Source of the DNA: Candidatus Shapirobacteria bacterium
GTDB taxonomy: Bacteria; Patescibacteriota; Microgenomatia; UBA12405
Direction: 5' to 3'
DNA length: 64,000 bases
Assembly (NCBI GenBank): GCA_018062705.1
Contig: JAGORQ010000002.1
Coordinates: forward strand, 7,450-71,449
Position numbers and translations under genes: made by a program
Part shown: in pieces, positions 31,371 to 52,103 of the stretch
Position numbering within the stretch: position 1 is the first letter of the stretch
Layout: the number at the start of each line of letters is the position of its first letter
The notes under the pieces: generated by a model
Seen by the model: the letters and a program-made list of their open reading frames with translations, nothing else
Databases searched by the model: none
What the model was told of the DNA's origin: nothing

Positions 31371-32705
31371 ATGCGGTCAAAAAATCTTTCCGTACTGTCT
31401 TTTGCCCTAGTAGCTGCCGGTGCGATGTTTACCCCCGCTCCCGCCCAAGCCTTCGACTTTGGCCAGTTTGTCGGGTCTTTTTGGAATCATTCCATCAATC
31501 CACCAGCCGTTACTCTGTGTATTAAAAATTCTGGTGCAGTGTATGTAGTTGGGGAGGGCTTTAGAAAAGCCGATTGTAAAAAAAATGATCAGTTAATTAG
31601 CTTAAATCTCAAAGGCGCCACTGGCGACAAAGGTCCCACAGGCAATCCGGGGCCTGCCGGTCCCCAGGGTCCAGCCGGTGTTCCAGGTATTGCCGGTCCC
31701 CAGGGCGACAAGGGTGCCACTGGCGATCAGGGAAGTGCTGGTCCCGCTGGTCCTCAGGGTTTAGTTGGTGATCAGGGGCCTTTAGGTCTAAAAGGTGCTA
31801 CCGGTAATCAGGGACCCCAGGGCGACAAAGGTCCTGTCGGCGACCAAGGTCCTGCTGGCCCGGCTGGTCCTCAGGGTGCAGAAGGACCACAGGGTGCTGT
31901 TGGTCCCCAGGGTCCAGCTGGCCCTGGCGGTATTGATGGAAATATAGGACCTATTGGTCCTGTTGGTCCTGCTGGCCCCCAAGGACCTATCGGTCCCCAA
32001 GGTGATGTTGGCCCTATGGGCGCCACCGGCCCCCAGGGTCCCCAGGGTGACACTGGTGCCAAGGGAGAAGTGGGCGACAAAGGTGATACCGGAGCTGTTG
32101 GTGAACAGGGCGCCACCGGTCCCCAAGGACCCGAGGGCAAGCAAGGCCCCCAGGGTTCAAAAGGTGATCAAGGCGATCAAGGTCCCCAGGGACTAACAGG
32201 CAATAATGGTCAAAACGGCCAAGATGGCAAATCAGCCTATGATCTGGCCAAAGAAAATGGATATACCGAAGATATTACTGAATGGCTCCTCAGTTTCAAG
32301 GGTGAAAAGGGCAAAGACGGCACAAACGGTCAGGATGGCGCTCAGGGTATTGAAGGACCACGCGGTCTTCCTGGAGTCGCCGGTCTTCAAGGTGATATCG
32401 GACCTATTGGTCCTGCTGGTGCCAACGGTACCAATGGTGTTAGTGGTTGGGAAATCAAATTTAGTACTGTTTCCAGTGATGATGAATTGCTAAAAACAAA
32501 AGTAGCAGATTGCACTGCTGGCAAAAAAGTGATCGGTGGCGGATTCAAAACCATTGATGCAAGCGACTCAAGCGAAATCGTCGTCACCAATAACTATCCT
32601 CTCGATGGCGATTCTTGGACTGCTACTGCTGGCATCGATAGTAGCTCAGGTGGTGATCAGAGTTTTGCTTTACAAACATATGCCATCTGCATCTCCGCTC
32701 TGTAA
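31371..32705 (+). CDS. collagen-like (G-X-Y repeat) secreted protein with C-terminal globular domain
   Basis: About 230 aa of uninterrupted GXY triplets (GPQGPAGVPGIAGPQGDKG...); signal peptide; 110-aa non-collagen C-terminus. Confidence 0.8.
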   Translation: MRSKNLSVLSFALVAAGAMFTPAPAQAFDFGQFVGSFWNHSINPPAVTLCIKNSGAVYVVGEGFRKADCKKNDQLISLNLKGATGDKGPTGNPGPAGPQGPAGVPGIAGPQGDKGATGDQGSAGPAGPQGLVGDQGPLGLKGATGNQGPQGDKGPVGDQGPAGPAGPQGAEGPQGAVGPQGPAGPGGIDGNIGPIGPVGPAGPQGPIGPQGDVGPMGATGPQGPQGDTGAKGEVGDKGDTGAVGEQGATGPQGPEGKQGPQGSKGDQGDQGPQGLTGNNGQNGQDGKSAYDLAKENGYTEDITEWLLSFKGEKGKDGTNGQDGAQGIEGPRGLPGVAGLQGDIGPIGPAGANGTNGVSGWEIKFSTVSSDDELLKTKVADCTAGKKVIGGGFKTIDASDSSEIVVTNNYPLDGDSWTATAGIDSSSGGDQSFALQTYAICISAL

Positions 32706-42167: not shown

Positions 42168-42238
42168 TACCCCGTCGGCTAATGGTAGGCCATTACGCTC
42201 TGAACGTAAGAATTGTGGTTCGAATCCATGCGGGGTAA
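42168..42238 (+). tRNA. tRNA-Gln (anticodon CTG), no encoded CCA
   Basis: Manual fold: acceptor taccccg/cggggta, D arm ggct-aatggta-ggcc, anticodon arm ttacg-CT[CTG]AA-cgtaa, T arm tgtgg-ttcgaat-ccatg, discriminator A. Confidence 0.8.
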
Positions 42239-43672
42239 CCCTAGTGTATGATCGTTATATTTTGCGATTAGATTAAACGGTTTTACCCAATCGCTTACGA
42301 GTAATTTGTTCTCGATACGTAAGTTCGAAAGTGTCATGCCTATTAGTTGTCGTTTTTGCTCAGCATTCGAACTTTCAAATATCTGACTAGCTCGTGATGT
42401 CAGCTTTATCACCTGTTCTATGGTGGAATAATAGTTATTCTCTGCTTCACCGAGGTTGCTGATTTGAACATTGAAGTCAGCGATTTTGTTATCAATCTCA
42501 ACCTTGAGTTTGTCGTATTCATTGCCAGTAATACGCTGATCGAGTAATGTTGTCAGTAAGGTCTCTTTTCTTTTTGTATACATCTCAAGATCACGATTGA
42601 GTTTTCGGCTCATTTCTTCTCTAAATTCCTTTTTGCCTTCGTTTACTGATTTGAGAGTTGTTAGGACGTCGCTAATTACCTGCTCTGGCAATATCAATTT
42701 CTCAAACAATTTACTGACTTGGTTATTTATCAAATGTTCTGCCATCATGACGGCATTGTGTTTGCCCTTAGATTCACTGCATTGATAATAAAACTCGCCT
42801 TTGTGAAGCTCAGGTGAAGCTGAACAGCCACAAACAGCACAGGTTAACTTACCTCGATAGACTGCTGGCTTGGCATGTATTTTTCTACGCTTCTTATTAA
42901 ATCCATTTCTAATTTCTTGGACTTTGTCGAACAACTGTCTATCAATGATAGTTTCGTAGATATGGGAGAACAGTTGGCCTTTGTGAAACATCAAGCCGTA
43001 GTAAAATGTGTTAGTTAAAATTTTGGAAATGTTGCCGTTAGACATTTTAACCTTGTAGTCGTCCAATACCTTTTTTCGGACTGTTTGGAACGAGTGGTTG
43101 CCTGAAGCATAAAGTGAATAGATTTCTTTGACAACTTTTGAATTAAATGGGTGAGGCTTGATATTCTTTTTGCCTTCTTCGTCAAGGTAATTTATATATC
43201 CGTATGGTGGCTTGCCTGGCAACTTACCTTCAATTACCATCTGCTCGATTTTTCTTTTGACATTGTCACTTAACTGTAAAACGTAACTTCTGGCAAACAT
43301 CACGGCCATATCCCAGCGAAGCAAATCAGCACTGTTTGATGTTTGGCTGATAACTAAGTTTTCTCGATAAAAATGAATTTCAATTTTACCCTTTTTTCGT
43401 AATTCATCTAGTTGAACTGACTCTTTGAAGCTTCGTTGTAGTCGGTCAACAGTGTCAACAACTAATGCAATTGGCTCCTTTATATGTTCAATTTCTTTGA
43501 TGACTTCTTGAAATTTCTTACGATCATTTTTGGTGGACGACTCTTCAATCTCGACAGTCTTCCAAACATTTAGACTTTTGTGTCTGACATATTCAGCAAT
43601 ACGGACTAGCTGAGCTTCATTGGAATCCTGCTTTTTGTCCGAAACTCTGGCTAATACGATGGCTTTCATCAT
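42179..43672 (-). CDS. large serine recombinase (integrase)
   Basis: AIVLARVSDKKQ catalytic Ser region, recombinase domain, CAVCGC...C zinc ribbon; C-terminal 19 codons overlap the tRNA-Gln 3' part. Confidence 0.8.
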   Translation of the reverse strand: MMKAIVLARVSDKKQDSNEAQLVRIAEYVRHKSLNVWKTVEIEESSTKNDRKKFQEVIKEIEHIKEPIALVVDTVDRLQRSFKESVQLDELRKKGKIEIHFYRENLVISQTSNSADLLRWDMAVMFARSYVLQLSDNVKRKIEQMVIEGKLPGKPPYGYINYLDEEGKKNIKPHPFNSKVVKEIYSLYASGNHSFQTVRKKVLDDYKVKMSNGNISKILTNTFYYGLMFHKGQLFSHIYETIIDRQLFDKVQEIRNGFNKKRRKIHAKPAVYRGKLTCAVCGCSASPELHKGEFYYQCSESKGKHNAVMMAEHLINNQVSKLFEKLILPEQVISDVLTTLKSVNEGKKEFREEMSRKLNRDLEMYTKRKETLLTTLLDQRITGNEYDKLKVEIDNKIADFNVQISNLGEAENNYYSTIEQVIKLTSRASQIFESSNAEQKRQLIGMTLSNLRIENKLLVSDWVKPFNLIAKYNDHTLGLPRMDSNHNSYVQSVMAYH

Positions 43673-44415
43673 TAGATATCAAATTTATTAAAGCCTTCAT
43701 ACTTACTAAACGATAGTAAATAAATACTTTTAAGTAGATTTGGTGATATAGCTTTAAGTTCACTAAATACCGTGTTGGTTTTATTTCTGTCTTTCATTGA
43801 ATGAATAACATCATCAAGGATTATTGGTAGTTTTTCACATAAGTTTTTAAATGAGTCTTTTTGGCTTGTAACGATTTCGTAAAACTTATCGATTGAAATT
43901 TTTCTGATTCTCTCGTCTGATACAGTTTCACTGTCGAGTGATACTTTCCATATTTCATTTTGACTCTTTTTTGCAATAACTTCTACGAGAGCACAAGTGG
44001 CTTGTTTATCTTTGGCAACTTTACTCATCATTCTCATATATGTTTTTTGAGAAGATGAAGAGTTCATTGTGTTGTGCTTATTTTTCATTTCAACATAGAA
44101 ATGTAATTTTTCATTTACGACATCATAGCCGTGTGTCGGAACAGTCCAAGCTGAATCAATATACTTGAATAGGTTTTGATGAAAATATCCAATTTCGTTT
44201 GTGTTTGTTTTGTCTATTTGTCTGATAATTTCACTTTCAATTGTGTCTTCAATACTTTTACTGTAAATTTTTGAATCAAATGTCATTTTAATGGGATCAA
44301 TTAAGTTCTTGTTAAATGTTGACAGTGATATATCAAAACGATATTTTTCAACAGTATTCTTTACATGGTTGTAAATATCTTTGTCAGCAATAAAACCAAG
44401 ATTATATGTGTTCAT
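43672..44415 (-). CDS. hypothetical protein, candidate type II restriction endonuclease
   Basis: Immediately downstream of, and co-oriented with, the C5-MTase; no recognisable motifs. Confidence 0.35.
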   Translation of the reverse strand: MNTYNLGFIADKDIYNHVKNTVEKYRFDISLSTFNKNLIDPIKMTFDSKIYSKSIEDTIESEIIRQIDKTNTNEIGYFHQNLFKYIDSAWTVPTHGYDVVNEKLHFYVEMKNKHNTMNSSSSQKTYMRMMSKVAKDKQATCALVEVIAKKSQNEIWKVSLDSETVSDERIRKISIDKFYEIVTSQKDSFKNLCEKLPIILDDVIHSMKDRNKTNTVFSELKAISPNLLKSIYLLSFSKYEGFNKFDI

Positions 44416-44419
44416 ATTG

Positions 44420-45679
44420 TTATTTAATAACTTTTAATAAATTTATGGCTACTTCTCTGACAATATTTACTCCAAGTGCATTACCGAGTAAACCAAGGCT
44501 TTTTCCATAACTTTCAGGAAATTTATATGAGTCTGGAAAACCTTGAACCCTTGCCGCTTCTCGGACTGAAAGTTGTCTATATAACTTTTTTCTGTAAATA
44601 TTTTCAACAAAATACTCTTTTTTGTCTTTAGTGTTTATTGGAATATCTATTGTGCTCACAAAATCTCTTACACCAGTTTTAGTTAAAGTTGAAAATACAT
44701 GTGAGCTTGGAGTAAATATTCGATAAATGCCGAATACACCTGACGAATTTTTTGAATTTACAAAGTCATATTTCCCATCTCGGTATAATAATATTTTTTT
44801 CTCTATGAGACTTGATAAATCATTAGTTTTTAAATTAGGAATTATTTTTTGGATGTCTGTAAAGCTTAGCGGATTACCATCTTTTGTTCCATATTTCTTT
44901 TTTCTGCGATTTTTCAATATTGCAAAACAGATATTCTTTTCATTATCATTTGTGTCTATAATGTCCCACGAATGGATTGTATGATCTCCGTTTCTAGTAT
45001 CACAAAAAGTAAAGTAATTATCTTTGTTGATTGTATATGACATCCCGAATGAATTTTTTATATTTGTGTCATTTTTTACTGATTTGTGTAAATGTGTTTT
45101 GTAATCTTCAAGTATTTCTGACATGTTTGGTAATATCTTGTATGTATCGGGAAAAACAAACTCAAGAATATTGTCTTTTTTAATTCCAACGATAAATACT
45201 CTTTCTCTGTTTTGCGGTAATCCATAATCAAAAGCATTTAACACTTTGTAGTTGACCTTGTAGCCAACTTGTTCAAATGACTCAATAATTAGTGACAAAT
45301 TTTCATGATTTCTTGGATCAGCTAAACCTTTGACATTTTCAAATATAAAAGCCTTTGGCTTAACATTTTCTACAAATTTGATTGTGTCAAACCATAAAGC
45401 TCCTCGTGGATCTTCAAAACCGTGTTTTTTTCCTGCAACTGACCACGATTGACAAGGGACACCACCAGTTATTAAATCAGCATATGGATATTTTTTGATT
45501 TTCGTAATGTCTCCTAGATTTTCTTCTTCTGATGAGTCAAAGTTAGCTGTGTATACCTGAATAGCTGTTTTATCTATTTCGGAATAGCCAACACATTTAC
45601 CGCCCTGTTCTTCCAACGCTATCCTAAAGCCACCAATACCTGCAAATAGGTCAATAAAAGTAAAATTATTTTTTGTCAT
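44420..45679 (-). CDS. DNA (cytosine-5)-methyltransferase
   Basis: FAGIGG (motif I), GGVPCQSWS (motif IV), ENV (motif VI). Confidence 0.9.
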   Translation of the reverse strand: MTKNNFTFIDLFAGIGGFRIALEEQGGKCVGYSEIDKTAIQVYTANFDSSEEENLGDITKIKKYPYADLITGGVPCQSWSVAGKKHGFEDPRGALWFDTIKFVENVKPKAFIFENVKGLADPRNHENLSLIIESFEQVGYKVNYKVLNAFDYGLPQNRERVFIVGIKKDNILEFVFPDTYKILPNMSEILEDYKTHLHKSVKNDTNIKNSFGMSYTINKDNYFTFCDTRNGDHTIHSWDIIDTNDNEKNICFAILKNRRKKKYGTKDGNPLSFTDIQKIIPNLKTNDLSSLIEKKILLYRDGKYDFVNSKNSSGVFGIYRIFTPSSHVFSTLTKTGVRDFVSTIDIPINTKDKKEYFVENIYRKKLYRQLSVREAARVQGFPDSYKFPESYGKSLGLLGNALGVNIVREVAINLLKVIK

Positions 45680-45836
45680 TATATTTAATAAATCTATCTA
45701 ATTCAATTTTATTTATTCTATATTGTCGGCCTGCTTTGACTGATTCAAGCCTTCCAGAGCGGATCCATCGGTAAACAGTGAGGTATGCAACTTTGAGCAT
45801 TTTGGAGACTTCTTCGATTGAGTAATACTTGTCCAT
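45666..45836 (-). CDS. small HTH protein (excisionase/AlpA-like or controller), 56 aa
   Basis: MDKYYSIEEVSKMLKVAYLTVYRWIRSGRLESVKAGRQYRINKIELDRFIKYNDKK; found by hand; 14-nt overlap with the MTase start. Confidence 0.6.
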   Translation of the reverse strand: MDKYYSIEEVSKMLKVAYLTVYRWIRSGRLESVKAGRQYRINKIELDRFIKYNDKK

Positions 45837-45841
45837 ATTGG

Positions 45842-47008
45842 TTATTCTAATTTAACATCATTTAACATTAAAGTGGGATAGTCAGTAAGATGAAGTGGAC
45901 GATAATCTATCAACATCTGCCTGATTGTAGGAAATAATTGAGGTAGGCGTTGATTTGTCGACCACATTTTTACTTTACTTTTATATCGATACCATTGGTC
46001 GTCGCTTTTAGTTCGAATCATTGATCTAATTTCCCTCATACTGTGGGTTTTTAATAGCTCATTGGTGGCATACATTGCCAAAATATCGATTATTGAGGCT
46101 TGCGGATTTGATACCTGTAGCTGCAACAACACTTCTTCTTTTGACTTGAATTTGGTATCGACGACTTGAGGATAGTTAGCAATTATTATGTCAAATTGAT
46201 TCAACACCACGGCCTGCGATAACTCACTTTTGAAAAGTGCTCCAAATTCTAGTGATTTGATTTCCTTACCAGCCTCGGCAATTTTCTTTTTGATCACCTC
46301 ACGTCGATTTAGTCTGACTTCAAGCCGTAGCACTTCGAATGTCGATTCCTTGTTCTTTTTAATAAGGTTATCGAGCAAATTCAATTGAACTACTGCTTCA
46401 TGTTTTTCTTCCGATTTCTTAGGACTGACTCTGGCCTGCTCAAGGTCTTTTACCTTGTCATACATAGCAAACTCAAAACTATTGGTCCGATATTTTAGAC
46501 ATATGCCTTCATTTTGATAATCGCATTTATTGAAGCCAAGTCTTTGAGTAATGTCAGCTTTTGATATTTGCTGAAGAATATATTGGCAACGATAACTATT
46601 TTCAAACACTAAGTTCTTCGAGTAGTGAATACCCGAGACTTCGGCTTGGTGTATGAAATGTGGCATGAGGAATATACCAGCCCAATCGTGGAGCCTGTCA
46701 TGAAGCCAAGGGACCAGTCTATCAATATCGGCGTCAATTACTTCATCAAAATTATTTCCATAAAGTGCCTTTGGAACTGAAAATTGAATCCTTAGACCTA
46801 GTTGTGACTTTCCAAAAACCATTCGTCGCTGAAGTGTTAAACAAGGCAAATACCCAAATAATTTGTATTCAGCAATAGTCGGATTTTTGACGATCCTGTC
46901 GTGGCCTGCTTTTTGAAATAGATCTGAAGTGGATCTAAATCCAAATTTGTTTGAGTCGGTAATGGCAAACATATTTTGCTCAATAACCAATATCACCGTG
47001 TCGATCAT
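45842..47008 (-). CDS. hypothetical, possible Rep_trans-type rolling-circle replication initiator
   Basis: FAMYDKVKD (Y-D-K) and RLEVRL (RxExR) resemble Rep_trans motifs. Confidence 0.35.
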   Translation of the reverse strand: MIDTVILVIEQNMFAITDSNKFGFRSTSDLFQKAGHDRIVKNPTIAEYKLFGYLPCLTLQRRMVFGKSQLGLRIQFSVPKALYGNNFDEVIDADIDRLVPWLHDRLHDWAGIFLMPHFIHQAEVSGIHYSKNLVFENSYRCQYILQQISKADITQRLGFNKCDYQNEGICLKYRTNSFEFAMYDKVKDLEQARVSPKKSEEKHEAVVQLNLLDNLIKKNKESTFEVLRLEVRLNRREVIKKKIAEAGKEIKSLEFGALFKSELSQAVVLNQFDIIIANYPQVVDTKFKSKEEVLLQLQVSNPQASIIDILAMYATNELLKTHSMREIRSMIRTKSDDQWYRYKSKVKMWSTNQRLPQLFPTIRQMLIDYRPLHLTDYPTLMLNDVKLE

Positions 47009-47270
47009 AATTCATTACTTCTTCAAATTTTTTTATAATTACTTCTTCAATTTCACGACCAATTTGACTGCTAATAGGGTAAATAAATGGAATGTTTTTG
47101 TCACCTATTTTTTTGTTTGGATATATCAATCTATACCCGCCTAGTGGACGGGTATGTATAGCAACTGAGCCAACATAAATAGAGTTATCAAAAACGAAGC
47201 TAGCAAAGCCAACCAAACCATTGATTGGACGAATAGGTGTGATAGATATTTCATTTATTTTTTGATTCAT
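46980..47270 (-). CDS. SpoVG-like protein
   Basis: ISITPIRPINGLVGFASFVFDNSIYVGSVAIHTRPLGGYRLIYP...PISSQIGREIEEVIIKKFEE aligns with SpoVG. Confidence 0.6.
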   Translation of the reverse strand: MNQKINEISITPIRPINGLVGFASFVFDNSIYVGSVAIHTRPLGGYRLIYPNKKIGDKNIPFIYPISSQIGREIEEVIIKKFEEVMNYDRHGDIGY

Positions 47271-47472
47271 TTTGCTTTTTTAATTTGGCAAGTTGTATGC
47301 CTTTTTTAATACTATCGATTTGAGCCTGTTTGTAGGCTGTTTCAAATGCTAGCCATAGCATTTCCTCAAATTGTGAGTTCTGATTTTGTTTCATACTTTT
47401 TCTCCTTGGCCATATTGGCCTGATCAATTTCAAATAATAATTGAACATATTCGGCAAGTTTTGATAAGTCAT
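47251..47472 (-). CDS. small hypothetical protein (start uncertain, overlaps alternative ORF 47366..47554)
   Basis: ORF track only. Confidence 0.25.
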   Translation of the reverse strand: MTYQNLPNMFNYYLKLIRPIWPRRKSMKQNQNSQFEEMLWLAFETAYKQAQIDSIKKGIQLAKLKKQNESKNK

Positions 47473-47627
47473 CAGCAGATAGGTTAAGACCCTCTGGTGT
47501 ATTGATAATTTTTGGCGTTACCTCAGTAACTCCTTGGTGGCTCCTCTCTTGCACAAATGTAGATTACAGTTGATTGATTGTGCCGTCGATTACATTGGAA
47601 AAGGTGACACTGTCACTTTCTTACATG

Positions 47628-48353
47628 TCACGATTTCGTATAGCGGTTATAAAGTTTTTTTACACTTGTGCCATTTACCTTCCCGTCTTTTACATCTTGA
47701 TCGTCAGGGTTTTCTTCACAAAGAATGTCAGCGATTTTGTCGAAAGTATTTTTCTTTGATTCATTTCTTAGCTCCACAATTCGTTTTAGTCGTTCTGCCT
47801 TATCTAATTTGGCAATGGCTGGTATTATACCCTTGTAGTGATCAAACACTTGACCAACTATTTCACCTCCCTTTTCGTCAACCCAATCTTTTAATCCAGA
47901 AATAGTAATCGGTCCATGAATTTTAATTTTTAGCCAAAGTGAGTGGTCGGCAAAGTTATGGTCGGTCTGATATTTATATGATGATGAAATTCGATAGGAC
48001 CCAATCTCTCTTCGTTTACTTGCCTTTTTTAATTGTTCGTCAGCATATGGGGCAATGCCTGATTCTATGATCATCTCTAAGTCTGATTCACTTCCATCCA
48101 GTCCATATTCTTTTGCCATGTCGTAAATCAGCTTGGTATATTCCTTAAATAATTTGTCGCATTGGAACATCCTTTGATCAAACTTAAAAGTATTTCTCCA
48201 ATTTACCGTATCTTCCTCAAATCCTTCCATGCCATATTTATTTCTAATCTCATCAACTTTTGCCTTAAAATCCTTATTACATAAATACAGTAATTCAACT
48301 TTTGGTGATAGTTTATCATTAGCCATTTCTTTACATCTTGAATTATCAAACAC
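47628..48353 (-). CDS. hypothetical protein (island cargo)
   Basis: 241 aa, no recognisable motifs. Confidence 0.5.
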   Translation of the reverse strand: MFDNSRCKEMANDKLSPKVELLYLCNKDFKAKVDEIRNKYGMEGFEEDTVNWRNTFKFDQRMFQCDKLFKEYTKLIYDMAKEYGLDGSESDLEMIIESGIAPYADEQLKKASKRREIGSYRISSSYKYQTDHNFADHSLWLKIKIHGPITISGLKDWVDEKGGEIVGQVFDHYKGIIPAIAKLDKAERLKRIVELRNESKKNTFDKIADILCEENPDDQDVKDGKVNGTSVKKLYNRYTKS

Positions 48354-48465
48354 CCTATTCTATCAGTCCAAAATAACTAAATCTAAAGGAATTATAGGAA
48401 ATATAAACCATATGATTTACATTTACGACTTGGGTTGATGAGTAGTTGTTTGGTAGAATCAGGCT

Positions 48466-49452
48466 ATGAAGATGCAATTAAACGAAGCAACTGATTTGTC
48501 TGTTAGATTTCTTCAAAGGCTAGAATTGTCCGAGGTTGAGTCAAAATATATTACTGAAAACCTGGTCGAAGCCGAATTAGCTGGTCGTAAAACTCATGGA
48601 TTTATTCGTCTACTCTCATTTAAGAAAACATTCGATAGTCAAAAGCTAATTACAGGTGAATTGCCTCTAAAAGTTATTAGTGAGACATCAAACTCTATTC
48701 ATATTGATGGCCAATTCAAGCTTGGGTATGGTCCGATATACCAGTCACTGGAAATGGCAATTCCAAAAGCCAAACAATCAAAATTGTTTAGCGTGGGCAT
48801 TAAAGACTTGGGTGTAACTGGTTACATTGGTGCATATGCCAAAAAAGCCACTGAGCAAGATTTAATCTTTATCGGTTTTAATAATTCTGCTGGTGGATTA
48901 GTGCCTTATGGCTCGATAAGTGCGATGTGGGGCACAAACCCAATTACTGTTGGTATTCCTACTAATAACTATCCAGTAATTTTGGATATGGCTTCAAGCC
49001 AAATTACTTGGGGTGATTTATTAGTGGCTAAAAATTCAGGTAAAGAAATTAAAAGTGGAACTGCTATCGATGGCGAAGGAAGGATAACAACTGATCCATC
49101 AAAAGCAATGGAAGGTGGACTGCTACCCTTCTTCGGTCACAAAGGGTCAGGACTAGCGTTTATTGTTGAGTTGCTAGGTGGAGCTTTGACAGGATCAAGA
49201 GTAGGTAATAATGTTGCTGGCGGTTGGGGATCATTTTATATCTTGATTGACCCGACATTATTTAGACCTATACAAGATTTTAAGGATAATATCCAAACTG
49301 CAATTGACGAGTTAAAAAATTCACCCAAAATGGCAGGATTTGATGAAATATATTTTCCTGGTGAACAGTCGGCAAAGTTAAGTGAAGAGCAAAGGAAATC
49401 AAACACAGTTGAAATTGATGATGGGTTATTAGAAAAGATAAAAAATATATAA
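48466..49452 (+). CDS. Ldh_2 family (malate/L-lactate/sulfolactate dehydrogenase-like) oxidoreductase
   Basis: GRKTHGFIRL, FFGHKGSGLAFIVELLGG. Confidence 0.7.
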   Translation: MKMQLNEATDLSVRFLQRLELSEVESKYITENLVEAELAGRKTHGFIRLLSFKKTFDSQKLITGELPLKVISETSNSIHIDGQFKLGYGPIYQSLEMAIPKAKQSKLFSVGIKDLGVTGYIGAYAKKATEQDLIFIGFNNSAGGLVPYGSISAMWGTNPITVGIPTNNYPVILDMASSQITWGDLLVAKNSGKEIKSGTAIDGEGRITTDPSKAMEGGLLPFFGHKGSGLAFIVELLGGALTGSRVGNNVAGGWGSFYILIDPTLFRPIQDFKDNIQTAIDELKNSPKMAGFDEIYFPGEQSAKLSEEQRKSNTVEIDDGLLEKIKNI

Positions 49453-49454
49453 TT

Positions 49455-49868
49455 ATGATTAAACTATCCAAAGCAACTGATAAAGAAAATCTAGGTAAAG
49501 AATGGCAAAGTTTCACTGTTGAAAAGTATGGTAAGGGTGCAAAATGGATAGAAAAAAATTATAGATTCAAAGCAGTTGATAATGGAAAAATACTAGGAAC
49601 TATTGAAGGAAAATATGAGCCAGGAGTTATTTATATTGCCGCCTTAATGGTAACTGATGAGGCTAGAGGTAAAGGAGTTGGAACATTGCTAATAGATAAG
49701 GTTGAAGAATATGGTAAAAAACTAGGTGCTCACAGAACATGGCTTAGCACTGGTAAAGATTGGTCAAATCGGTCTTTTTACGAAAAACTAGGATTCAAAG
49801 AAATGGCAAAATTATCTGATTTTTATTTTCATCAAGATTTTGTTGTTTACACCAGATTAATAAAATAG
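49455..49868 (+). CDS. GNAT family N-acetyltransferase
   Basis: ARGKGVGTLLIDKVEEYGKKLG motif A. Confidence 0.7.
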   Translation: MIKLSKATDKENLGKEWQSFTVEKYGKGAKWIEKNYRFKAVDNGKILGTIEGKYEPGVIYIAALMVTDEARGKGVGTLLIDKVEEYGKKLGAHRTWLSTGKDWSNRSFYEKLGFKEMAKLSDFYFHQDFVVYTRLIK

Positions 49869-49878
49869 TCATACCCAT

Positions 49879-50895
49879 ATGAAAATCCAAGCACTAGCAG
49901 TCTTAAAATCAGGTGAGTCATTGTCCACTTTTGAATATGAGGCAATAATTGGACCAAATGATGTATTGATTGATTTGAAGTATTGTTCAATGACCAAAGG
50001 CGATATTCGTTTTATGTCCAACTTTTGGAATGACACTAAATTTCCACTGGTTCCAAGTTCCGAAGCGTTTGGAGTTATTAGCCAAATCGGAACCGAGGTA
50101 AAAGACCTTGTGGTTGGTGATTACGTCGGTCTTGGTTATCAAATGAGCTCTTGTCACCGATGTGAGTATTGTTTGTCAGGTAAAGAGCAGTTTTGCCTTG
50201 ATCAAAAGGTTGTATGTGTCGGAGGGTTTGGTGGATTAGCTAAACAAATTGTTTTTGATAGTCGATTTGTTTTTAAGATTCCAAGTAACCTTCAGGATCC
50301 GAAGTATGTGCCATTGATGTGCTCTGGCTTGACTGTTTTTTCAGCAATTAATAGAGGTGGACCAAAATCAGGAATGAAAGTTGGGGTTGTAGGGATTGGC
50401 AATCTTGGACACCTAGCTGTGCAAATACTAGCCAAAATGGGCTGTGAAGTGTCGGTTTTTACTCATCGACCTGAAAAGAAAGCTGAACTTTTAGCTCTTG
50501 GAGCAACTGAAGTTATTGACAGCACATCAGTTGATGAGTTGAAGAATCAATCGAAAAAGTTTGACTTGATATTATCAACATCTTCAAAGTCACTTGATTG
50601 GCCATTATACATTTCTGCCCTCAAACCACTTGGCAATTTAATGTTTGTAGGTCTGCCTGAAAAAGAAATAACATTCCCGATTGAAATGATGGCTGACTAC
50701 GCCCAGCGTGGAGTTTTGGGAAGTTATATTGGCAGTCCATCAGAAATGAAAGAGTTGCTCGAATTTTCTAGTAACTATAATTTATCAGCCAATGTCAAGG
50801 TAGTTCCTGTTGCTCAAGTTGCTCAGGCGGTAGCTGATATTGTCGAAGACAAATCAAACTTTAGCACTGTAATTGACTTGACCGATTGGAAATAG
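49879..50895 (+). CDS. zinc-dependent alcohol dehydrogenase (MDR, cinnamyl-ADH-like)
   Basis: CHRCEYCLSGKEQFC structural zinc site; VVGIGNLGH Rossmann. Confidence 0.8.
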   Translation: MKIQALAVLKSGESLSTFEYEAIIGPNDVLIDLKYCSMTKGDIRFMSNFWNDTKFPLVPSSEAFGVISQIGTEVKDLVVGDYVGLGYQMSSCHRCEYCLSGKEQFCLDQKVVCVGGFGGLAKQIVFDSRFVFKIPSNLQDPKYVPLMCSGLTVFSAINRGGPKSGMKVGVVGIGNLGHLAVQILAKMGCEVSVFTHRPEKKAELLALGATEVIDSTSVDELKNQSKKFDLILSTSSKSLDWPLYISALKPLGNLMFVGLPEKEITFPIEMMADYAQRGVLGSYIGSPSEMKELLEFSSNYNLSANVKVVPVAQVAQAVADIVEDKSNFSTVIDLTDWK

Positions 50896-51008
50896 TCCAT
50901 TTGGTAAGTTAATCCAAAAGGAGTTTAACTGGTCCAAACGGATGAAATCAGTGTTATTCTGTTCACATTGAAAGTTTAATAACGCATCTACTAGGGGTAA
51001 CTAAAACT

Positions 51009-51305
51009 ATGAAAAAACTCTTCACTTACGATCGTTACCCACAGGGTCGGCCAACCTCCAAAAAAGTTGAAATCAAATGTATTAATTGCGCCACCACCCA
51101 GTTTATCTATCAAAAAGATGGTAGTGGTACTCTTGAAAAACTATTTCTCGACCTAATTCTCGACAATCCCCAAGTCAAAAACAATCAAAAGTTAATTTGT
51201 CCCAGTTGCGAAAAAGTCTTAGGCACAAAGTTTAGTCACGGTTCAGTCAATCGCCTAGCCTTCAAGCTATATCCCGGGTCTATTTACTATAAAGTGGTAA
51301 AATAA
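51009..51305 (+). CDS. small zinc-ribbon protein (CxxC...CxxC), hypothetical
   Basis: CINC...CPSC. Confidence 0.5.
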   Translation: MKKLFTYDRYPQGRPTSKKVEIKCINCATTQFIYQKDGSGTLEKLFLDLILDNPQVKNNQKLICPSCEKVLGTKFSHGSVNRLAFKLYPGSIYYKVVK

Positions 51306-51416
51306 TAACCATGCAAACTATCGACGAGCTCGCCACCGAACTAAAGCTAAACCCAGAACAGGTTGAAAAAATTCAACACTATATCAACAAACTAGTTGTT
51401 GAACTGCTTGAAAGTA

Positions 51417-52103
51417 TCAAGGAAGATAATGATCGTAACTTTGATGAGACAATCGCCAATCTCCAATAGCCATCTCTTCGCCGTGACCGGGTAACACCCT
51501 AACTCTATTTGGAAGTTCCAGTATGCTTTGTAAGCTGGCATCCATCTGCTTTTTTGATGAATATTCGTGAGTTGTCTCACCCACTGTCCCGTCGGCAAAC
51601 ATCATGTCACCAGTAATAATAAATTCCGCCTCGGGGCTATAAAAACACAGCCCGCCAGGTGTATGTCCCGGAGTTTTCATCACTTTTAGTCTAAATTCAC
51701 CCAATCTAATTGCCCTGGCCCGGGTCATATCGATATCTATCCTTTTAATATTCGGTACTTTTATTTTCCGTTTCAAAAAATGCTCAGCTGTTTCTCCCAA
51801 TCGTTGCACCAAAAACAAATCGGCTCCATGTACCGCCAGTGGAATATTGAGCATCAATTTTATATCCAAAGCTCCGAGCATATGATCAAAATGTCCATGG
51901 GTGGCAATAATTGACAAAACTTTTATCCCCAGTCTTTGAATTTCGTCCACAATTTCCACTCCGGCATCTGCCGGGTCAATCACCACCCCTTCCTTTGTTT
52001 CTTCATCCCACACCAAGTAGCAGTTGGTATTCATATCACCCAGCACTAATTTTTCATACTTCAGCATTTTTCTATTATATTCAATTTTTCCAACATTATC
52101 CAC
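51417..52103 (-). CDS. MBL-fold metallo-hydrolase (glyoxalase II-like)
   Basis: IIATHGHFDHMLG, GHTPGG. Confidence 0.85.
   Translation of the reverse strand: MDNVGKIEYNRKMLKYEKLVLGDMNTNCYLVWDEETKEGVVIDPADAGVEIVDEIQRLGIKVLSIIATHGHFDHMLGALDIKLMLNIPLAVHGADLFLVQRLGETAEHFLKRKIKVPNIKRIDIDMTRARAIRLGEFRLKVMKTPGHTPGGLCFYSPEAEFIITGDMMFADGTVGETTHEYSSKKQMDASLQSILELPNRVRVLPGHGEEMAIGDWRLSHQSYDHYLP

Follow-up and report, generated by a model that had tools for sequence, protein, structure and literature searches.

An integrated plasmid-like element at a tRNA-Gln gene of a Shapirobacteria-like bacterium belongs to a large CPR-wide family associated with restriction-modification systems

What is the AT-rich block of genes that adjoins a tRNA-Gln gene in Candidatus Shapirobacteria, where does it end, and can it move? 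Bacteria of the Candidate Phyla Radiation (CPR, or Patescibacteria) make up a large share of bacterial diversity. Their genomes are tiny, and mobile elements and CRISPR defence are usually said to be scarce in them. The stretch analysed here, referred to as the window, comprises 64,000 nt of contig JAGORQ010000002.1 (assembly GCA_018062705.1). A preliminary description, made from the sequence alone, had placed at tRNA-Gln(CTG) an integrated mobile element with genes for a large serine recombinase (LSR), a restriction-modification (R-M) module, an Xis-like helix-turn-helix (HTH) protein, a Rep_trans-like protein (here Rep), and a SpoVG-like protein. Our analysis supports that proposal (Table 1) and extends it. 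The element, which is well preserved, is one of a large family of tRNA-integrating Rep_trans/LSR elements that extends across the CPR and shuttles R-M systems, and we consider it very probable that it is an integrative, plasmid-like element of a Microgenomates (Shapirobacteria-like) CPR bacterium that works in the manner proposed below.

Table 1. Features of the integrated element and its attachment sites (window coordinates)
Feature	Coordinates	Strand	Basis or remark
Host tRNA-Gln(CTG), integration target	42168..42238	+	ARAGORN; Rfam RF00005, 56.5 bits, at exactly 42168-42238
attL core GGGGTAAC	42232..42239	+	Last 7 nt of tRNA (acceptor 3' strand and discriminator) plus 1 nt
LSR, integrated form, 497 aa	42179..43672	-	Pfam; homologue alignment; L005 DNA identity
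Eco47II-family type II restriction endonuclease, cargo slot A	43672..44415	-	PF09553, E 1.7e-83, 279.6 bits, profile 1-201/202
C5 cytosine DNA methyltransferase, cargo slot A	44420..45679	-	PF00145, E 2.5e-87, 293.8 bits; TIGR00675 dcm, 281.6 bits
HTH_17 (excisionase/MerR-like) DNA-binding protein, 56 aa	45666..45836	-	PF12728, E 2.6e-15, 56.9 bits (cut-off 27); PHROG excisionase families
Rep_trans-fold rolling-circle initiator (or relaxase-like) protein (putative), 388 aa, family hallmark	45842..47008	-	
SpoVG-like nucleic-acid-binding protein, 96 aa	46980..47270	-	PF04026, 25.2 bits (cut-off 29.6), profile 2-82 of 82
Two small overlapping open reading frames (73/47 aa and 62 aa)	47251..47554	-	tblastn, 75% and 52% identity to L005/L006
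241-aa protein, first backbone-strand gene	47628..48353	-	Relative in L008 element 3
Ldh_2-family (malate/L-lactate/sulfolactate-type) dehydrogenase, cargo slot B	48466..49452	+	PF02615, E 2.9e-84
GNAT acetyltransferase, cargo slot B	49455..49868	+	PF00583, E 1.9e-16
Zn-dependent alcohol dehydrogenase (ADH) / Ahr-like aldehyde reductase, cargo slot B	49879..50895	+	Precomputed PF08240, PF00107; NF047908, 273 bits (cut-off 470)
Detached in-frame LSR C-terminal tail exon, 48 codons (LPLVDALLNFQCEQNNTDFIRLDQLNSFW...)	50854..51000	-	Translation; comparison with the 529-aa LSR of L005
attR core GGGGTAAC	50994..51001	+	Host DNA restarts directly after, with a 98-aa ORF (orf98) at 51009

The borders follow from comparison with related contigs and loci, which carry L numbers. 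One of these, L005 (a contig from Logan SRR8925769), has LSR DNA 96% identical to window positions 43669-42232 and continues unbroken into sequence 92% identical to positions 51001-50869. A three-way base-by-base alignment of the two window junctions and the L005 junction reveals a common 8-bp core, and the element-side arms of the window equal the L005 attP over about 30 nt. With the core in the middle, attL reads ..GGTTCGAATCCATGC GGGGTAAC CCTAGTGTATGATCG.., attR reads ..AACGCATCTACTA GGGGTAAC TAAAACTATGAAAAAAC.., and the attP of L005 reads ..AACGCATCTACTA GGGGTAAC CCTAGTGTATGATCG... The junction sequences deduced for the window element are GAATCCATGCGGGGTAACTAAAACTATGAAAAAAC (attB) and CGCATCTACTAGGGGTAACCCTAGTGTATGATCG (attP). 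The attP forms an imperfect dyad (ACTAGGG-GTAA-CCCTAGT), as expected for a serine-integrase site, and the B and P arms resemble each other loosely, with identity of attP and attB amounting to the 8-bp core. Short sites, a dyad in attP, and attP/attB identity of a few base pairs are the pattern of a serine integrase, and the crossover point presumably lies within the core.

Both cores are in direct orientation, and their positions make the element 8,762 bp long from core to core, not 6.3 kb. Because the core consists of the last 7 nt of the tRNA and one further base, the mature tRNA, whose CCA is not encoded, is identical before and after integration. The tRNA was considered as cargo of the element and rejected, because the same tRNA occurs at the syntenic place in relatives that lack the element. 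A right border near 48,440, which the preliminary description had flagged as a guess, is excluded by the L005 comparison and the att alignment; the true border lies at 51001, and the element thereby gains three metabolic genes. That description had also seen no direct repeat of the tRNA 3' end. The 8-bp repeat exists but was seen through comparison alone; a search between 41.5 and 52.5 kb for a tRNA copy of at least 12 nt returned nothing useful. The reported shift in base composition is real, with a GC content of 0.351 in the element against 0.416 in the host (lowest same-size host window, 0.392) and a drop from about 0.42 to 0.29-0.38 in the element region, but the low-GC block reaches about 51.0 kb rather than 48.44 kb.

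Relatives without the insertion, the comparison that had been suggested for defining attL and attR, show the site unoccupied. In a scan of one genome per species, the same tRNA 3' end was found in metagenome-assembled genomes (MAGs) of Shapirobacteria and other Microgenomates. In at least 10 such loci the tRNA lies beside homologues of a 52-aa open reading frame (ORF) of the window (orf52), Lactamase_B, RRM, and Dus, with no element gene, Ldh_2, GNAT, or ADH in between. L043, one of the relatives, shows the arrangement of the deduced attB, with the tRNA and then an orf98 homologue on one strand. The Ldh_2 dehydrogenase gene lies inside attL-attR and is absent from the relatives' loci, and the element as a whole is absent from all related species examined. 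Exact look-ups of the flanking-gene proteins returned the source organism's own contig as the sole match.

The recombinase that would act at these sites has the build of a large serine recombinase. It combines an N-terminal catalytic domain with its serine (PF00239, E 1.3e-15, 58.2 bits, cut-off 23.3), a recombinase domain (PF07508, E 3.5e-10, 40.5 bits, cut-off 21.1), and a zinc ribbon (PF13408, Zn_ribbon_recom) that scores weakly here (18.5 bits, cut-off 25.3) and is precomputed for nearly all homologues. R9 and S11 are invariant among the LSR and 14 aligned homologues, and weak NCBIfam matches point to XisF and CcrA. The stop codon and the last 19 codons lie inside the tRNA, as had been described. 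Residues 1 to about 480 are encoded by the element, whereas residues 481-497 (17 residues) and the stop are the antisense strand of the host tRNA. The conserved sequence ends at an x-L-P motif (residues 478-480), which corresponds to the acceptor end of the tRNA read in antisense, and the attP core falls inside codons 478-481. Among the 120 LSR homologues listed, the sequence beyond xLP is "..DSN.." (antisense T-arm) in 47 and an immediate stop in 43, and a minority continue with a conserved LPL(V/I)(D/N)x(F/L), a peptide that is encoded at the far end of elements.

These features place attP inside the LSR reading frame, so that integration would split the gene and leave the catalytic body without its tail of about 35-50 aa. 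The in-frame tail exon of the window, whose final 14 codons run across the 3' end of the ADH gene, corresponds to the tail that the 529-aa LSR of the L005 circle carries in fused form. Detached tails also occur at the far ends of six other integrated elements (L004, L048, L092, L100, L115, and L131), and attached ones are seen in circles as well as tandem arrays (L008 twice, L049, L106, and L120), where the upstream LSR reads into the tail of the next element. Differences between the tails of different elements are often synonymous or conservative (e.g., AAC AGA GAA ATT GAG TTT GGG versus AAC CGA GAA ATA GAG TTT GGA, both encoding NREIEFG), which suggests selection on the protein. The integrated LSR keeps all recognised domains, and the excised form, with its native tail, would measure about 526 aa. 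In the phiC31 integrase, the extreme C-terminus contributes to the directionality-factor interface (bioRxiv 10.1101/2025.05.02.651858), a plausible reason for such a tail swap to matter. Possibly, the integration-dependent exchange of tails is a built-in switch of recombinase activity or directionality.

Relatives of the element are found both in a circular (or tandem) state and integrated. The ends of L005 overlap by 19 nt, and joining them rebuilds an 825-aa ResIII-type ORF whose end coincides exactly with that of the 5' partial ORF; because of this, L005 is taken to be either circular, at 9,141 bp, or a tandem repeat that was collapsed. A contig from a different sample, L006, is 99.97% identical to L005 from the core onward and carries unrelated sequence directly before it. 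As the breakpoint falls exactly at the core, the two contigs represent the same element in its attP state and in its integrated state. Terminal overlaps of 123 and 127 nt were found in L086 and L089, respectively, and the L086 circle (7,575 bp) contains the full backbone.

The preliminary description regarded the element as a rarity in a reduced, CPR-like genome, but the family to which it belongs is very large. For Rep, a full HMM search yielded at least 1,541 clusters at 50% identity (724 at E <= 1e-30), and the source names attached to the members are all Patescibacteria or unclassified "bacterium." We fetched 82 further loci for a survey of architecture. The SpoVG-like gene lies directly upstream of rep in 69 of 72 loci, and an HTH_17 gene directly downstream in at least 50 of 70, a lower bound because the tblastn query is 56 aa long. 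The LSR gene follows on the same strand in all 20 loci with more than 6 kb of room, at a distance from rep of 5 nt to 5 kb. In most cases an opposite-strand tRNA overlaps the 3' end of the LSR gene (Asn in at least 18, Gln in 2, Glu in 1, and His in 1), an overlap confirmed in L048, L049, and L050. Four tRNA-Asn elements with both ends mapped have cores of 8-10 bp (TGGCTCCC(C)(C), the tRNA 3' end including CCA) and lengths of 6.8-7.9 kb; across the family, elements measure 7-11 kb. The slot between rep and the LSR gene holds almost exclusively R-M genes: N6_N4 and N6 methylases, ResIII, Eco57I, MmeI, EcoRI methylase, type I S and R subunits, GmrSD/HNH, Tsp45I, EcoRII, type ISP, and C5 methylases. 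A literature search found no description of such a Rep_trans/LSR element family; its coverage was incomplete, so the novelty of the family is provisional.

Some loci hold tandem arrays of two or three elements (L008 1-21566; L049 2490-11503; L106; L120) whose LSRs belong to different clades (25-66% identity). These arrays yield hybrid recombinase genes, in which an upstream LSR is joined to the tail exon of the element that follows.

The hallmark of the family is Rep. Its Y183-(D)-K185 and R228-x-E230-x-R232 are invariant in an 89-sequence family alignment, and the AlphaFold model built from this alignment (pLDDT 87, pTM 0.88) has the Rep_trans fold, so the original suggestion, made from the YDK and RxExR motifs alone, was sound. 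Ten of the 89 relatives match PF05144, the N-terminal domain of filamentous-phage G2P (best E 1.2e-7), and two match PF02486 (Rep_trans) weakly, at E 0.0076. As these two weak matches fall short of the PF02486 threshold and the window protein has no Pfam match, we file Rep outside PF02486: based on the model, it is a very divergent protein with the Rep_trans fold, a distant relative rather than a member. Neither the PDB sequence profile, PHROGs, nor the plasmids of PLSDB returned anything for Rep.

The G2P matches invite the idea of a prophage, inovirus-like or of another single-stranded DNA phage, whose replication protein resembles G2P. Sizes of 7-11 kb lie within the inovirus range, two relatives are found in IMG/VR, and there are small ORFs of no known function, some with hydrophobic stretches (L005 p74). 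However, Pfam and PHROGs identify no capsid, coat, Zot-like morphogenesis ATPase, terminase, or lysis gene in any backbone protein, tblastn of Rep against 50,697 phage genomes (INPHARED) found nothing, and the 2 loci in IMG/VR compare with at least 444 in JGI metagenomes. The coding capacity is, moreover, mostly R-M and defence cargo. The lack of morphogenesis genes (Zot/pI and coat) excludes an inovirus prophage, and we regard a prophage of any kind as extremely improbable.

A second alternative concerns the purpose of Rep. The element could be an integrative and mobilizable element (IME) in which Rep is mainly a MobT-like relaxase that nicks oriT and passes the DNA to a chromosomal type IV secretion system (T4SS) of the MPF-FATA type, with spread by conjugation. 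On integration and excision this agrees with an integrative plasmid-like element; it differs on what Rep is for and on how the element moves. The T4SS of MPF-FATA type occurs throughout Patescibacteria with almost no relaxases, and relaxases of a very different kind may still await discovery (PMC12102498). In Tn916/ICEBs1/ICESt3-type elements, the MobT relaxases are members of the Rep_trans family and serve both transfer and replication (PMC5704250). Because Rep_trans is the family of the MobT relaxases found in MPF-FATA elements, the Rep family, large and invisible to Pfam, is an obvious relaxase candidate. The elements also have an integration/excision module of their own (LSR and att sites) and lack their own transfer apparatus, no element protein having T4SS-like domains. 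Against this stand the top structural matches of the Rep model, which are plasmid replication initiators and not a relaxase, and the lack of any T4SS, coupling protein, or oriT in the element or in the large ORFs of the window; CPR bacteria could, in addition, equally acquire such DNA by transformation. We consider an IME unlikely. The same holds for the broader notion that the Rep family is the "missing" relaxase of Patescibacteria and that the 7-11 kb elements are mobilised by the chromosomal MPF-FATA T4SS, which we judge doubtful.

The remaining backbone genes are largely as first described. The 56-aa Xis/AlpA-like protein carries an HTH_17 domain and is the most likely candidate for a recombination directionality factor, or else a regulator; HTH Xis-type directionality factors are known for some serine integrases. 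The SpoVG homologue scores below the Pfam cut-off, yet all six orthologues tested span the whole PF04026 profile and three of them (L004, L048, and L086) pass the cut-off at 30.5-34.9 bits. The two small ORFs have no Pfam or PHROG match. The 241-aa protein had been listed as an unknown, and it has no Pfam, NCBIfam, or PHROG match and no word-indexed homologues; its sole relative is a 233-aa protein of L008 element 3 (30%, 1e-28). The slot that it occupies, upstream of the small ORFs and the SpoVG-like gene, holds two unrelated families, the 241-aa type of the window (and of L008 element 3) and a 213-356-aa type. Counterparts at this position (L005 4178-5221, L048 5148-5810, and L086 3781-4851) likewise lack matches, and neither family has a known domain.

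In the R-M cargo of the window, the candidate endonuclease belongs to the Eco47II family, and FAGIGG, PCQ, and ENV motifs are visible in the methyltransferase whose motifs had been noted before. The two genes adjoin on the same strand, 4 nt apart, as in a type II system of the Eco47II type, and the methyltransferase is probably the partner of the endonuclease. The sequence GGNCC, which we take to be the Eco47II recognition sequence, occurs 94 times in the host DNA, against 147 expected from a Markov model or 98 from base composition, so that avoidance is ambiguous. At the far end of the element, none of the Ldh_2, GNAT, and Zn-ADH proteins reaches an NCBIfam equivalog cut-off. These three metabolic genes are atypical of their slot (0 of 25 far-end genes in 13 other elements), which elsewhere contains one to three opposite-strand genes of toxin-antitoxin or defence-like character (SocA/Panacea, Hypoth_Ymh, Schlafen-AlbA_2, DUF3800, and SDH protease).

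In the mechanism that we propose, the LSR would recombine attP with the terminal 8 bp of the tRNA-Gln gene region, and the mature tRNA would be kept. Integration would park the LSR tail in frame at the far end and leave the LSR body to end inside the antisense tRNA, and excision would restore the full-length LSR gene and a circle. The circle may replicate by a rolling-circle mode begun by the Rep_trans-fold protein, with the SpoVG-like protein binding nucleic acid during replication or regulation and the HTH_17 protein acting as directionality factor or regulator. The R-M system probably defends the host and penalises loss of the element, thereby stabilising it. Finally, DNA might reach new cells by mobilisation, transformation, or vesicles.

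Several results weigh against this proposal. The element encodes no transfer machinery. The similarity of Rep is distant: the window protein lacks a Pfam match even at E <= 1, and a Foldseek search against the PDB found nothing for it. No origin or nick site was identified. The tails of the window element and L005 differ by 9 non-synonymous and 4 synonymous changes, mostly in the ADH overlap, which bears on the functional weight of the tail. An assembly that looks circular may equally be a collapsed tandem repeat, the two being indistinguishable, and tandem arrays are indeed present in the family (L008 and L049). Moreover, no circular or empty-site sequence of the exact element or host was found, a degenerate 34-nt pattern covering attB, attP, attL, and attR of the window element giving 0 matches in JGI metagenomes and IMG/VR. 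For this reason, excision of the window element is argued from the relative with 96% LSR DNA identity.

The lack of an attB or attP junction for the exact element, together with an integrated LSR that is without its native tail, would also suit a fixed genomic island, a decayed remnant that is inherited vertically and no longer mobile. However, all backbone genes are full length with the family-invariant residues, the LSR is intact rather than a pseudogene and has its counterpart sites, and the tail exon is still open in frame over 48 codons. Over about 30 nt the att arms equal the attP of a relative known from both its circular and its integrated state, and the absence of the element from all related species examined likewise counts against this reading. 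A decayed island is excluded, as all parts are intact, and we find a fixed one highly improbable. An integrative, plasmid-like element of the kind proposed is the reading that we retain.

Further observations concern the integration site and its surroundings. The segment from tRNA-Gln to orf98 (window 42168-51305) is inverted relative to related MAGs (L043, L014, and L033): their order is orf98(-) tRNA(-) beside orf52(+) LactB(-) RRM(+) Dus(+), and that of the window is SNase(+) tRNA(+) element orf98(+) orf52(+). Since the att cores are in direct orientation, this inversion is a separate rearrangement. The orf52 (51311-51469, + strand) is conserved with 48-64% identity beside the tRNA of related MAGs, at no fewer than 15 loci. 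It overlaps Lactamase_B at the 3' end of that gene, has a weak match to Sigma70_r1_1 (E 0.0024) as its sole family match, and probably encodes a genuine small protein. In L032, GCGGGGTAAC recurs about 50 nt downstream of the tRNA, and two copies of the 23-nt tRNA 3' end stand 120 nt apart in L039 (880-1022). Such repeats may be traces left by earlier integration and excision or, alternatively, tRNA genes in tandem. Six MAG loci labelled "uncultured Gammaproteobacteria" (L009, L019, L020, L022, L026, and L027) have the Microgenomates-type tRNA-Gln/orf52/Lactamase_B/RRM/Dus synteny at 42-63% protein identity, and the taxonomic labels of these bins look wrong. Elsewhere in the window, a local rise in GC content to 0.50 is due to the gene for a 444-aa protein (31371-32705, + strand) with five collagen triple-helix repeat stretches (PF01391, E 2.7e-40). 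A scan for promoters and terminators gave no excess over shuffled sequences.

Exact borders, attachment sites, and a gene-by-gene backbone are now available for a very large CPR element family that standard annotation misses and that appears to be specialised in moving R-M systems between CPR genomes. The family bears on how CPR bacteria acquire and exchange defence genes and, as in the window element, genes of redox metabolism, and on whether the enigmatic T4SS of Patescibacteria has DNA substrates. If Rep were the missing relaxase, CPR bacteria would exchange DNA, chiefly R-M systems, by conjugation. The elements also bear on serine integrases that target tRNA 3' ends with 8-10 bp cores and carry attP inside their own gene, an arrangement previously described for archaeal tyrosine integrases. 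Two natural forms of an LSR could inform the control of serine-integrase directionality, and the mapped attP/attB pairs might be developed into tools for the genetics of organisms for which hardly any exist at present.

Among known systems, the closest functional analogues are the IMEs of Firmicutes, which pair a serine or tyrosine integrase with a protein resembling a rolling-circle initiator, of the Rep_trans/MobT or PHA00330 type. Like the CPR elements, they are small, have the recombinase at one end and very short direct repeats, rely on a Rep_trans-superfamily protein as the sole DNA-processing enzyme, lack a transfer apparatus, and may carry R-M cargo (PMC5704250). The serine-recombinase IMEs usually integrate in, and disrupt, dispensable protein genes (PMC5704250), whereas the CPR family uses the extreme 3' end of a tRNA gene and keeps the tRNA. 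The CPR family differs further in its host, in a Rep too divergent for Pfam, in an attP inside the recombinase ORF, and in that the relaxase role is putative. The tycheposons of Prochlorococcus, which shuttle cargo in a streamlined genome, likewise target tRNA genes and form tandem arrays. They combine a terminal integrase with a small replication module and variable cargo, and both their circular and their tandem junctions have been observed (bioRxiv 10.1101/2020.12.28.424599). Their recombinase is a lineage-specific tyrosine recombinase (910 of 937, with few LSRs) and their modules are of primase, helicase, and polymerase, in contrast to the LSR, Rep_trans fold, and mostly R-M cargo of the CPR elements; the likeness is one of lifestyle only.

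Rep itself shares 7-9% sequence identity with the initiators of pT181/pSTK1-type plasmids (RepD/RepDE, 4CWC; RepSTK1, 4CIJ) and with G2P (PF05144). It differs from them in an extra C-terminal helical domain of about 150 aa, and its element integrates via an LSR. Mycobacterial phiRv1 combines an LSR with an HTH Xis, and the staphylococcal cassette chromosome (SCC) uses Ccr recombinases at the 3' end of rlmH and forms tandem arrays. Common to these and the CPR elements are an LSR with short att sites, a 3'-end target that is not inactivated, a small HTH protein as possible directionality factor, and tandem accretion. Their cargo and hosts are unrelated, however, they have no Rep_trans module, and their att sites lie outside the recombinase ORF. 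For the split recombinase gene, the parallel is found in the "suicidal" integrases of SSV type, in which attP likewise lies in the integrase ORF, integration at a tRNA splits the gene to opposite ends of the element, and hybrid genes arise in tandem or mixed arrays (PMC7253208). Those are archaeal tyrosine recombinases left as two inactive pseudogenes, whereas the CPR enzyme, which has serine-recombinase domains only, loses a C-terminal tail of about 35-50 aa and keeps its recognised domains; the relationship is one of analogy, not membership.

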